A DNA stretch of 45,783 bases from a virus. Taxonomy: Duplodnaviria > Caudoviricetes. This document shows, one piece after another, positions 32,427 through 40,955 of this stretch (positions are counted from its first letter, which is position 1; the number at the start of each line of letters is the position of its first letter). Where the stretch lies: positions 1-45,783 of the IMG/VR virus record IMGVR_UViG_3300025600_000010; one strand, 5' to 3'. The notes beneath the pieces were generated by a model, which had not been told where the DNA came from, ran no database searches, and worked only from the letters and a program-made list of their open reading frames with translations. The translations under genes and the position numbers were made by a program.

Positions 32427-32465
32427 AAAAAGAAAGCCCCAATGCATTCAAGCAAAGGGGCTTTC
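32427..32465 (-). terminator. Intrinsic terminator closing the RNA-array operon
   Basis: Minus strand GAAAGCCCC...GGGGCTTTC followed by TTTTT. Confidence 0.8.
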
Positions 32466-32519
32466 ATAGTTCGGCGGTATGCGCCAGCGTTCGGATGAAA
32501 CGCTATTTGTTGGCGGTTA

Positions 32520-32582
32520 TCAAAGGAAGCTTACAACGGCCTTGACGTTGTGCTGTTTGACAGTCTTGCCCGGTTTGCTCAT
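32520..32582 (-). CDS. 20-aa peptide MSKPGKTVKQHNVKAVVSFL
   Basis: GAGGGGGG SD; tandem stops TGA TAA. Confidence 0.45.
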   Translation of the reverse strand: MSKPGKTVKQHNVKAVVSFL

Positions 32583-32584
32583 GT

Positions 32585-32869
32585 CTCGCCCCCCTCAAAA
32601 GCGAACGGTTAAGGCGCTGAAGGCGCACGCCGCCTTGACAGCAAGAATGATTGAAATGCTTTCGGGCCTGGAACGGCCCAGGAACGGCGGCAAAGGCGTG
32701 TTTCTGAATCATTGCGGCTTTGCCCCGTTTGCCGGGAAGATCGGGACACAGGCGGCGCTTGTTGCGCTGCGCAGCGGCTTTGACGGTGCCGCGTGCGCCC
32801 CGATTAAGGCCGGGAAAGGATCATGCAAACATTGATTTCCAGGGGATAATTTATTTGCCCCTTCCCGGC
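32585..32869 (-). ncRNA. GC-rich structured RNA region downstream of the tRNA
   Basis: 12-bp closing stem 32809/32869; 11-bp stem closing a 3-way junction 32740-32804; further stems; mismatches resolve as G-U on the minus strand. Confidence 0.6.
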
Positions 32870-32873
32870 ACAT

Positions 32874-32948
32874 TGGTTACGCTTCTTGGATTTGAACCAA
32901 GGAATGACGGTATCAAAAACCGTTGCCTTATCACTTGGCGAAAGCGCA
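32874..32948 (-). tRNA. tRNA-Gln(UUG), CCA encoded
   Basis: TGCGCTT/AAGCGTA acceptor; GCC/GGC D stem; ACGGT-TTTTGAT-ACCGT anticodon arm; CTTGG-TTCAAAT-CCAAG T arm. Confidence 0.93.
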
Positions 32949-32966
32949 AAATTTGTTTCAGCTTAA

Positions 32967-33160
32967 TTGTTTGGTGGCGGCTTTCGGCCCCTCGGGATTG
33001 AACCGGGATTCCCTAGGCTGATTGGTAACTAGCGATAGAAAATGGTAATGCGCCCCTTGTGCGCCCATCCTTGCCACATTATTTTGAGCCGCTGTTAGGC
33101 GGCTTGCAAGGTTTCTAGTATCCGCGCCTTTTCTGGCCCTCTTTCGATAACACCAAACAA
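32967..33160 (-). ncRNA. 194-nt multi-branched RNA with a T-loop-like arm (unit E)
   Basis: Perfect 10-bp closing stem TTGTTTGGTG/CACCAAACAA; internal stems; GGTTCAATCC. Confidence 0.65.
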
Positions 33161-33168
33161 ACTGTTTT

Positions 33169-33228
33169 GTTTCAGGTTCCAGCTAAAGATGCTCTGGCTT
33201 TCATTTAATCAATCCGCTGAACTGAAAC
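33169..33228 (-). ncRNA. 60-nt stem-loop RNA (unit D)
   Basis: GTTTCAG..CAGC / GCTG..CTGAAAC. Confidence 0.55.
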
Positions 33229-33239
33229 CTAAATTGTTC

Positions 33240-33296
33240 TTGTCAGCTTCAAGGTTTGCCAAACGTCAAACGTTCAACCTAACTTGAAACCGGCAA
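33240..33296 (-). ncRNA. 57-nt stem-loop RNA (unit C)
   Basis: TTGCCGGTTTCAAG/CTTGAAGCTGACAA, 13 of 14 paired including two G-U. Confidence 0.55.
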
Positions 33297-33309
33297 ACTG
33301 ATTGTTGAA

Positions 33310-33390
33310 TTGCTTTGCTAAAGATTTAAGCGTGTCTCTTGTCATTTAAAGCCCTATCGTCAACCCCGAGGAACTTCTTTAGCAAAGCAA
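33310..33390 (-). ncRNA. 81-nt stem-loop RNA (unit B)
   Basis: Perfect 15-bp inverted repeat TTGCTTTGCTAAAGA/TCTTTAGCAAAGCAA around a 51-nt loop. Confidence 0.6.
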
Positions 33391-33405
33391 ACTGTTTGTT
33401 GAAGC

Positions 33406-33478
33406 GGTTAACGATACGCGGCGGTTATCGTCCTTTGCTTAGAAGAAAGCGGCAACGAACCGCCCCGCACCGTTAACC
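33406..33478 (-). ncRNA. 73-nt long hairpin RNA (unit A)
   Basis: GGTTAACGGTGCG/CGTATCGTTAACC (13 bp, two G-U) plus GGCGGTT/AACCGCC. Confidence 0.6.
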
Positions 33479-33491
33479 AGATGTTACCGGC

Positions 33492-34118
33492 CTATTTCAG
33501 CCGCCAGATTCGCGCCCCTTTCACGCCGTTTTCTTCAACGCCGCGAATGGTGAACTCTTTGGTAATTTCCAGGGTCGCAACGCTGTTGCCTTTGCGATTG
33601 GTGCGCATGATCGTTGCGCCGGTTTCGTCTTTCTTTTCGGTTGCAAACTTGCGCGTTGCGCCGGAAACGGTGCTTGCCAGGCTCTTTGCGGGGTCGGGCC
33701 GGTCTGCGGTTGCCGCGATAAAGAAGGATTGCCCCGCTTCCATCTGCTCGAACGGATAGGCGCTTTTGCGAATCGCGCCGCCTTTGGCAACTGCGGGAAC
33801 AGCAACGCCGGTTTCCAGGGTGAATGTCGGTTTTTCAACCGGTGCCGGTGCTGCGATTTCTTCAAGCTTGGTTCCGTTTGCGGCGGCTTCCTGCGCGGCG
33901 GCAATCGCCTTGACGGTGGCCCTGGTTGCCATTTCTCCGGTTTCGTTGACAAGCGTGGTGTTGACTTCAACTAAACCAGCATCAACAAGCGGCTTGTGAA
34001 TTTCAACGGAAGTATACATGAAACCGCCTTCATTCGTTGCCGTGACGATTGCGGCAAGTACCAGCATTGAAGCGGCAAGCGCCTTGTCCAGTTTCTTCTG
34101 TTCCTTTACAGTTGCCAT
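33492..34118 (-). CDS. 208-aa putative nucleic-acid-binding protein (N-terminal winged-helix-like, C-terminal YPF..M..G.SF domain)
   Basis: AAGGAG SD before MATVKE; GC-rich codons like the capsid gene; function inferred only. Confidence 0.8.
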   Translation of the reverse strand: MATVKEQKKLDKALAASMLVLAAIVTATNEGGFMYTSVEIHKPLVDAGLVEVNTTLVNETGEMATRATVKAIAAAQEAAANGTKLEEIAAPAPVEKPTFTLETGVAVPAVAKGGAIRKSAYPFEQMEAGQSFFIAATADRPDPAKSLASTVSGATRKFATEKKDETGATIMRTNRKGNSVATLEITKEFTIRGVEENGVKGARIWRLK

Positions 34119-34165: not shown

Positions 34166-34194
34166 ACAATACAGAATCTTTAACAGCCTGTCAA
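34166..34194 (-). promoter_or_regulatory. Strong sigma70-type promoter
   Basis: TTGACA-17-TATTGT. Confidence 0.8.
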
Positions 34195-37944: not shown

Positions 37945-38130
37945 TCACCCTTTCAAATCAGCAAGCGTTATTTGGTTCCACTTTATTAACTCATTTGCGA
38001 ACATAATGCAACGGTTTTCTGCAACGCAACCTTTAAACACGCGGTTTATTTCTTCCGGTGAAAGATCGCGGCAACCTTCCGCTTTCATCTTCGCAAGCAA
38101 GGTGCCTTTCCAATCATACAGCGTTGCCAT
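37945..38130 (-). CDS. Hypothetical protein
   Basis: GAGGGG SD; TAATG coupling. Confidence 0.6.
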   Translation of the reverse strand: MATLYDWKGTLLAKMKAEGCRDLSPEEINRVFKGCVAENRCIMFANELIKWNQITLADLKG

Positions 38131-38375
38131 TATGTGCGCCCCTCTTTGAATTCCTTTTCGGTGTAATCGAACGCGGCTTTAAACGCGTCATGATGACTTT
38201 TGCAGTTGCTTGCCTTGCCGGTCTTCCAAGATTTATCACGCGGCCCCTTTTCGATTTCGCCCAACATTATCATAACACCGTAAACACCGCCGCCGCGAAA
38301 GATTGTATAAATCAGACAGCGAACGCCGTTCTTGTAACCACCGGCCCAATCCCAATTCATTTTATATCTTGCCAT
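38130..38375 (-). CDS. Hypothetical protein
   Basis: AAGGGGG SD before MARYK. Confidence 0.6.
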   Translation of the reverse strand: MARYKMNWDWAGGYKNGVRCLIYTIFRGGGVYGVMIMLGEIEKGPRDKSWKTGKASNCKSHHDAFKAAFDYTEKEFKEGRT

Positions 38376-38377
38376 TG

Positions 38378-38593
38378 TCAAACCCCCTTTTCGGCCCTGA
38401 CAATGGGGGCCATGCTGTAAGCCCCGCAAGGCTTGACGAATTCAACGCCCTGGTAAACACCTATGCGCAAAACCTTGCATGTGACAGTCTTCAGGGTCTT
38501 TGCTGTGCGGCTTGCCACAACAACCTTGATAATGCAGTTAGAATCGCAAATGCTGCGCGTCTGGTAGGTCTTCCCGGCTTCAAAGGTTCCCAT
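38378..38593 (-). CDS. Small hypothetical phage protein (FEAGKTY.TRSICD...RTAKT)
   Basis: GGGG SD before MGTFE. Confidence 0.7.
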   Translation of the reverse strand: MGTFEAGKTYQTRSICDSNCIIKVVVASRTAKTLKTVTCKVLRIGVYQGVEFVKPCGAYSMAPIVRAEKGV

Positions 38594-38594
38594 G

Positions 38595-38837
38595 TTAAGC
38601 CCCCAGGTCAAGCGAAATGTAAAAGCTTTTCAGGTTAACGCTGTAACCGGTTCTAACTTTACTGTTGAAGTGTGCGCCGTTGCTGTTGTACTTGGCGAAA
38701 ATGCGAAGTGTTGCCAGTTCTGAACCAAACACATAAAGGATTCCAGGGCAAGAAAAATCAACCGTTACAGCTTCGCCTTTTGCAAATTCTTTCATCATTG
38801 CTTCAGTTCTTTTGATTTGCGCGGTTGTGATTTCCAT
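38595..38837 (-). CDS. Hypothetical protein
   Basis: AAGGGG SD; has its own promoter. Confidence 0.7.
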   Translation of the reverse strand: MEITTAQIKRTEAMMKEFAKGEAVTVDFSCPGILYVFGSELATLRIFAKYNSNGAHFNSKVRTGYSVNLKSFYISLDLGA

Positions 38838-38868
38838 GTTGTTCCCCTTTGTGCGTTTCGTTAAAACA

Positions 38869-38897
38869 AATATAAACGCATTTCATCAAAGCGTCAA
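38869..38897 (-). promoter_or_regulatory. Sigma70-type promoter (repeated family)
   Basis: TTGACG-17-TATATT-TGTTTTAACGAAACG. Confidence 0.75.
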
Positions 38898-39140: not shown

Positions 39141-39150
39141 CGAATATTTT

Positions 39151-40627: not shown

Positions 40628-40955
40628 AAATTGAGTAATCGTTTTGCACAACGTTTGACTTTTCTATTTCATGATGAAGTAAAATCAAAGCATTCCATGC
40701 AACTTGTGCAAGGTGATACACGCCGCCGTCTTTTTCGTTGATCGCCAGGGGAAAGCGTTGCGCGTCTTTAGTGTGGCGCAGCATTGCGGCAATGAATCTG
40801 CGCCGGTACGCTGTGCCGAAATCTTTACGCCAATTTTCAAAACCATATTTACTTTCACCGTGTTCAAAAACTTTTATCAATGGTTCAAGCACTTCAAGGG
40901 GCAAAAGCGAAAAATCAATCTTGCCGCTATCAAATTTTAAGCCTTCCGTTTTCAC
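40626..40955 (-). CDS. dATP/dGTP diphosphohydrolase-like protein (DUF5664)
   Basis: GLKFDSGK..FSLLP, G..KYG.ENWRK, AMLRH, HLAQVAWN. Confidence 0.85.
   Translation of the reverse strand: MKTEGLKFDSGKIDFSLLPLEVLEPLIKVFEHGESKYGFENWRKDFGTAYRRRFIAAMLRHTKDAQRFPLAINEKDGGVYHLAQVAWNALILLHHEIEKSNVVQNDYSI

Follow-up and report, generated by a model that had tools for sequence, protein, structure and literature searches.

A small uncultured myophage carries a tRNA and about ten folded RNA modules, several of which are preceded by A/C-rich linkers that, by their sequence, look like strong RNase E sites of the type found ahead of 5S rRNA in its precursor. These linkers are probably sites at which host RNase E would release the units. 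A phage tRNA and folded-RNA array joined by pre-5S-like linkers appears to be new, whereas 9S processing and T4-type stable RNAs are both known.

Genomic setting and composition of the array

The window, i.e. the whole stretch of DNA analysed (45,783 bases), corresponds to the whole virus record; it carries direct terminal repeats at its ends and encodes a terminase, a portal, a capsid and a tail sheath protein as well as a primase, a polymerase and a helicase. The public run in which it is best represented is a peat metagenome, from which this DNA may come. The array lies on the minus strand, like all the features described below, in a 1,045-nt stretch devoid of any credible gene (the longest sense ORF inside it reaches 69 aa), between the stop codon of a DUF7303 gene (33492) and the gene of the terminase small subunit. 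The DUF7303 gene (33492..34118; 208 aa), recognized by its domain and PHROG match (phrog_7597), has no assigned function. Upstream of it, a sigma-70-like promoter (34166..34194), identified by consensus match only (10 of 12 positions), is the likely transcript start for the array. At the other end, a terminator-like hairpin followed by a U tract (32427..32465), recognized by its fold and absent from the promoter/terminator scan listing, is of the type located directly 3' of DUF7303 genes in relatives; among the related loci listed, a terminator of the same style is nearly always found within about 100 nt of the gene. Furthermore, among 147 DUF7303 loci, two of which are this same DNA, the 145 others display no similarity to the gene-free stretch. 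We infer that the array entered the interval separating the DUF7303 stop codon from the terminator, and that gene and array share one transcript.

Between 34166 and 39140, several sigma-70-like promoters precede short orphan genes (one found by scan at 34194, the others by eye near 39141, 38897, 37758, 37409 and 35400), and this segment reads, by eye and by scan, as a modular early region. One contig from a related phage (run X3) skips 38002-38889. A gene located at 40629-40955 encodes a dATP/dGTP diphosphohydrolase N-terminal domain (PF18909), which in some phages accompanies modified DNA bases.

The array begins with unit A (33406..33478), a long hairpin. It is followed by unit B (33310..33390), whose 15-bp closing stem encloses a weakly folded interior of 51 nt, by unit C (33240..33296), a hairpin with a 4x4 internal loop, by unit D (33169..33228), which has a weak closing stem, and by unit E (32967..33160; about 194 nt), which has a 10-bp closing stem and a T-loop-like hairpin near its 3' end. 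A tRNA-Gln(UUG) with an encoded CCA (32874..32948) comes next, then the hairpin F (32809..32869), the predicted three-way junction G (32740..32804), unit H, made of a stem and a 16-nt loop (32677..32736), modules I and J (32515..32675), which are further, weakly predicted hairpins, and a last hairpin preceded by a motif-like string (32486..32513). Predicted folding is stronger than in shuffled versions for units A, B, C, F and G (z of -7.3, -2.9, -3.4, -3.0 and -2.7, respectively), whereas D, E, H, I and J are not clearly better than shuffles (z about 0 for I and J; D and E were tested a few bases short, and D with its flanks gives a z of -0.3).

Rfam searches of the whole region and of three pieces of it, at the gathering score and at E up to 10, recover the tRNA only; the units have no Rfam family and no homologue in the collections searched. 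Unit E was considered as a riboswitch, a tmRNA or a group I intron and rejected, none of these having Rfam support. An 8-base string occurs twice in this unit (33099-33106 and 32976-32983), so that the strand 33084-33090 has two potential partners, one nearby and the other at the 3' end, beside CCA; an alternative fold of E is therefore possible. The tRNA carries an A at the discriminator position and its best plasmid matches are from Priestia, the host not being indicated by the tRNA. In the 19 main ORFs, CAA and CAG are found 206 and 125 times, respectively.

Linkers and pre-5S rRNA junctions

A first-pass annotation had described a recurring linker motif directly 5' of each RNA unit. The six strings that it quoted are all present on the minus strand as given, and 33387-33403 and 33293-33309 are identical at 16 of 17 positions, as it had stated; such a repeat is only modestly unusual, being reached by 2 of 500 shuffles and in 2 of 42 other 1,045-nt windows of the genome. 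The motif does precede B, C, D, E and the tRNA, but A and F to J are devoid of it. The copy reported near 32510 exists as a string, but its AG is paired inside the stem of the last hairpin and the site breaks the RNase E consensus.

The annotation had also suggested counting AACAAWYAG, and this motif is enriched locally: the 1,044-nt region holds three copies for 0.06 expected from the rest of the genome (none of 2,000 region shuffles reaches three), all of them on the sense strand and none on the opposite one. Genome-wide, both strands together carry eight copies for 2.9 expected, a number reached by 1 of 100 shuffles. A looser pattern, AACAA[ACT]{2,3}AG[GT]TT, which was fitted after the copies were known, has four of its six genome copies in the region, all on the sense strand. 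In centroid folds, the linkers located before B, C, D, E and the tRNA are predicted to be unpaired, and the U found at +2 of the B, C and E sites is the first paired base of the predicted stem. The sense-strand bias, the local enrichment and the unpaired predicted context are consistent with processing sites.

The fit to RN^WUU, the RNase E core with its U at +2 (PMC5222698, in part), was put forward by the annotation for AG-UUU. It holds for B, C, E and the tRNA leader (32949..32966, with three overlapping sites), but not for D as drawn (AG|GUU), nor at 32510. Within the C-D linker (33229..33239), the fit is found at 33234/33233, 5 nt upstream of the stem of D and not at the drawn boundary; with this upstream site, the core with U at +2 is present in five out of five cases (B, C, E, D-upstream and tRNA leader). 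Since the genome contains 2,871 RN^WUU sites and the region contains fewer of them than its shuffles (21 vs 30), this fit alone is a weak argument.

A longer match is found with rRNA precursors. Ahead of 5S rRNA, E. coli rrnB reads AAAACAGAAUU|UGCC, which is close to the phage AAACAGUU|UGC, and E. coli RNase E cuts pre-5S rRNA three bases outside each mature end (PMC7261194, in part). This comparison was conceived after the motif was known and was then tested on outside genomes. A motif-led scan of 185,579 species genomes, using ACAGTTTGC followed by a degenerate 5S start, returned at least 120 loci. Among the 120 matches listed, 115 are 5S genes, with ACAG-UUUGC ahead of the 5S start, and the 80 titles belong mostly to Gammaproteobacteria or unspecified proteobacteria; the 100 distinct leaders among these listed matches favour A at -1 (84%) and C at -3 (75%), two positions left free in the pattern, which leads to the string of the B linker.

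A motif-blind sample was obtained by drawing 101 genomes that belong to the same class as a Sedimenticola genome, which we take to be Gammaproteobacteria. A 5S match was present in 68 of them and 66 loci were taken (one unpublished genome and one partial match being left out), which gave 62 junctions after removal of the centre genome, one locus without profile match and two short leaders, a few off-register rows being kept. Their consensus is A-(C/A)-C-R-G-U-U|U-G-C; RN^WUU is found two bases before the 5S start in 38 of the 62 junctions, and one junction carries the same 12 bases as the B linker. When the profile of these junctions (-9 to +3) is applied to the array, the B, C, E and tRNA leaders occupy ranks 1, 2, 3 and 4 among 1,043 positions of the region, and ranks 1, 15, 30 and 126 among 91,542 positions genome-wide. 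The A-B linker with its first stem bases (33387..33403) is thus the best pre-5S-like site of the genome, and none of 5,000 column permutations of the profile scores as high.

The leader columns alone, without the 5S bases, rank B first, E third, C 9th, D-upstream 13th and the tRNA leader 31st in the region (12th one base upstream). If the comparison is restricted to the 2,871 RN^WUU sites and to the columns outside the R, W, U, U core, the ranks are 1 for B, 16 for C, 25 for E, 99 for the tRNA leader and 1,900 for D; therefore, the match of B, C and E exceeds the minimal RN^WUU consensus and that of D does not. With stem bases included, D, A and the last hairpin (ranks 112, 106 and 109) do not fit the pre-5S profile. 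A second, phylum-wide draw (28 junctions from 29 loci) gives a weaker match and ranks B 6th, the tRNA leader 10th, C 13th, E 31st and D 66th in fixed register, and E second, B 4th and C 7th after a one-base shift. An outgroup of 29 junctions, taken in the phylum to which a Pseudobdellovibrionaceae genome belongs, gives no signal in fixed register and 45/5,000 with offsets; as some signal appears with offsets, the linkers may simply match what makes an RNase E site efficient in general, rather than copy 5S. The data do not distinguish an origin of the linkers in 5S spacers from their convergence towards an efficient site. The units themselves are not 5S rRNA, the corresponding Rfam model (RF00001) having no match in the phage genome.

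Putative release of the units and competing readings

The linkers had been proposed to carry a common processing or protein-binding signal that releases each unit at the foot of its closing stem. The match with pre-5S junctions argues for such a processing signal ahead of B, C, E and the tRNA, but "each unit" was too wide, as no site fits at A, at F to J or at the last hairpin, and the one that fits for D lies 5 nt upstream of the stem. Because the linkers match the sequence located just 5' of bacterial 5S rRNA, host RNase E likely cuts there and frees the units, and we consider their role as RNase E release sites to be probable.

According to this scheme, one transcript would run from the promoter at 34194 through the DUF7303 gene to the terminator at 32430. 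Host RNase E would cut AG^UUU at 33392/1 in the A-B linker, at 33298/7 in the B-C linker (33293..33309, first stem bases included) and at 33162/1 in the D-E linker (33157..33168, likewise), one or two bases before the stem, and D would be released by a cut within AA^UUU at 33234/3. The neighbouring helix would guide the enzyme to the linkers, RNase E cutting being known to be aided by an adjoining stem (PMC6202311, in part). The A/C-rich tail left on each upstream unit would then be trimmed by 3' exonucleases. RNase P, which matures tRNA 5' ends, would complete that of the tRNA at 32949/8. In the A-B and B-C linkers, the stem of the preceding unit is immediately followed by RN^UUC; a 3' cut at this sequence could account for the retention of all 17 bases in both. 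Unit A, which lacks the motif, is a possible substrate of RNase III, which might cut its long hairpin; F to J, also without motif, would need another route or remain joined. Once freed, the units would persist as separate stable RNAs, like RNAs C and D of T4. The cultured phages listed that carry a DUF7303 gene are named for Pseudomonadota hosts, and the terminase relatives are phages of Pseudomonadota; Pseudomonadota possess RNase E. None of the public RNA runs listed carries the region.

The linkers could also be passive A/C-rich insulators spread by tandem duplication of modules, the units folding within one RNA or being freed by RNase III (A, C and F) and RNase P (tRNA). A/C-rich strings indeed pair poorly, F to J are joined without any motif and the UUU is partly demanded by the stems; units B and D also have two short strings in common, one of 8 and one of 9 bases, which follow each other in the same order (33310-33350 and 33180-33208), the best of 66 pairs (p 0.013), which is not significant after correction. 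However, an insulator has no need for the order C-A-G-U-U-U-G-C, yet column order matters in the permutations of the pre-5S profile, and the unit bodies are dissimilar while two linkers keep 16 of 17 bases. We regard insulation as an unlikely explanation.

The same repetition, unpaired context and restriction to the sense strand would suit a site at which the array RNA is bound, with or without cutting, by a chaperone or packaging protein of the host or of the phage, and the array is co-located with a gene of no assigned function. The ORFs scanned, however, encode no Nop, Ro60, Cas6, RtcB or other RNA-binding family, and the 145 other DUF7303 loci lack a similar array. The structural model of the DUF7303 protein (33495-34118; pLDDT 82), which displays two domains, has no significant match among solved structures, in the atlas or by fold search, its weak matches being with winged-helix proteins (MarR/PadR; best E 0.33, none at 0.001). 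Such an RNA-binding role is distinctly improbable.

These weak winged-helix matches would suit a motif acting as double-stranded DNA, namely an operator bound by a dimer, for instance of DUF7303. A palindrome of 11 bp centred on an A is perfect at B, its 9-bp core is found at E and C has one mismatch; two of the five AAACWGTTT sites of the genome lie in the array, and the same string flanks promoter-like sequences in some other phages (L356, L379, L386 and L389). Against this, the 5' part common to B and C is asymmetric, the D and tRNA linkers contain no palindrome, the array holds a single promoter-like site, whose score (9 of 12) is at chance level, and an operator has no need to be placed at the feet of RNA stems. 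We consider an operator very unlikely in this array. In loci L356, L359, L379, L386, L389 and L391 (near 1201-1301), a similar string flanks or overlaps promoter-like sequences and is likely a DNA operator in those phages.

If release by RNase E does operate here, it would provide a base-level rule for freeing many RNAs from one phage transcript without any phage enzyme, and from this rule one could predict where RNAs outside any described family begin and end. A compact array with a defined linker can be cloned and cut in E. coli. Furthermore, the 5S-junction profile could find and delimit such arrays in other phages and hint at their host group. A broader view, which we consider doubtful, is that the phage copied the host pre-5S junction as a reusable connector, by which a swappable library of about ten undescribed RNAs would be fed into host rRNA maturation. 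The freed RNAs would be decoys for host RNA-binding, ribosome-assembly or anti-phage proteins, and the array would exemplify an extensive, so far undescribed class of modular RNA operons in phages, whose processing would follow a predictable rule. The decoy role itself is a guess.

Known systems, searches and relatives

By analogy, the release of the units would resemble 9S processing, and the layout of the array resembles that of the T4 cluster, in which tRNAs accompany RNAs C and D; the array is a member of neither family. As in the 9S (pre-5S) RNA of E. coli, a stem-closed RNA follows an A/C-rich leader ending in RN^WUU, and the leader and first stem bases match by profile. Unlike 9S RNA, the array has units that are not 5S rRNA and a junction repeated within a phage transcript. 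The register also differs by about one base, since the E. coli cut is three bases before the stem whereas that of the array, predicted from sequence, is one or two bases before it.

The T4 cluster likewise carries, beside tRNAs, stable RNAs without established role, RNAs C and D (rnaC and rnaD), whose role was still unknown according to a 2010 review (PMC3014915, in part). T4 RNA C has a T-arm-like hairpin near its 3' end, as in unit E, and, of ten T4 stable-RNA junctions, one reaches 9.8 with the pre-5S profile, a value also found among the 5S junctions used for training. This junction precedes tRNA-Gly (L353, near 2865) and scores far above most other T4 junctions. Nevertheless, T4 combines eight tRNAs with two such RNAs and has no repeated linker, whereas the array combines one tRNA with about ten modules, and no unit has significant sequence similarity to either of the two T4 RNAs (lowest p 0.02 in 66 pairwise comparisons).

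The TIGR stem-loop arrays (Tas/Nop) also consist of tandem stem-closed units cut in their linkers, cutting being only predicted in the phage array, and they require a Nop-domain gene (PMC12045711, in part). No Nop-domain Tas gene is found among the ORFs scanned against PHROGs and Pfam (a few short ORFs being left out). Unlike TIGR units, those of the array vary from 57 to 194 nt and lack, by eye, a shared two-spacer box C/D layout; antisense or guide matches of the array to its own phage genome are not in excess over control windows. Unit E resembles the YrlA Y RNA by its T-loop-like hairpin within a stem-closed RNA and differs from it by the lack of any Rfam match at E up to 10, of a D-arm-like hairpin after the T arm (by eye) and of a Ro60 gene among the ORFs scanned. 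A CRISPR or type III antitoxin repeat array was rejected, as there are only two 17-nt copies, identical at 16 positions, and spacings of 94, 68, 67 and 200 or more.

Homologues were searched for in several collections. A blastn comparison with 50,697 phage records gives no match outside the tRNA and, with plasmids, only the tRNA or chance matches of 24-25 nt. The units have no related array among 349 other loci, terminase loci included (best E 0.26); within the DUF7303 loci, the best other nhmmer match (E 0.02, in L145) was discarded since it falls in what reads as a terminase gene. Scanning viral contigs with a single linker yields 119 chance-like loci; a match in L016, which carries a tRNA cluster, lies inside a coding stretch. 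With two linkers, 46 stretches (35 distinct) are retrieved, none with a tRNA and most of them coding or simple repeats; one of them, L385, folds as a closed stem of another kind. Patterns derived from E and H give three unrelated matches in one scan of viral contigs, none in another and none in genome contigs. A phage RNA array joined by pre-5S-like linkers was not found in the literature covered, which excludes most subscription papers, including older T4 processing work; PMC10690425, of which six of nine supplement files were covered, has no match for these RNAs.

The relatives are short contigs only, from two other studies, one providing runs X2 and X3 and the other run X4. The closest proteins, P0002-P0004 and P0100-P0102, are 59-93% identical. 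In X2 and X3, no change is seen in the 151 and 166 bases that cover unit E and the D-E linker, positions 33157-33168 being identical in the X3 contig, whereas the rest of the listed pieces has 85 differences in 1,299 bases and 70 in 1,216. This identity is favoured because the runs were found through words of the array region; one other listed piece is also without difference, and 27 pieces are outside the table. In the DUF7303 piece of X2, the listed changes lie at 33564-33678, with only two in 33420-33563.

The X4 contig, which covers 32671-32820, displays seven base differences and two gaps, and at both of its loose ends the shared stem strands lead into other interiors; it retains the stem that follows H as well as the 3' strand of stem F. 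This one low-depth contig suggests, from its sequence, that the downstream modules are swappable. By eye, the interior that X4 carries at F is similar to module J of the window (32527-32560), apart from a change of G-C to G-U and a different loop of 7 nt.
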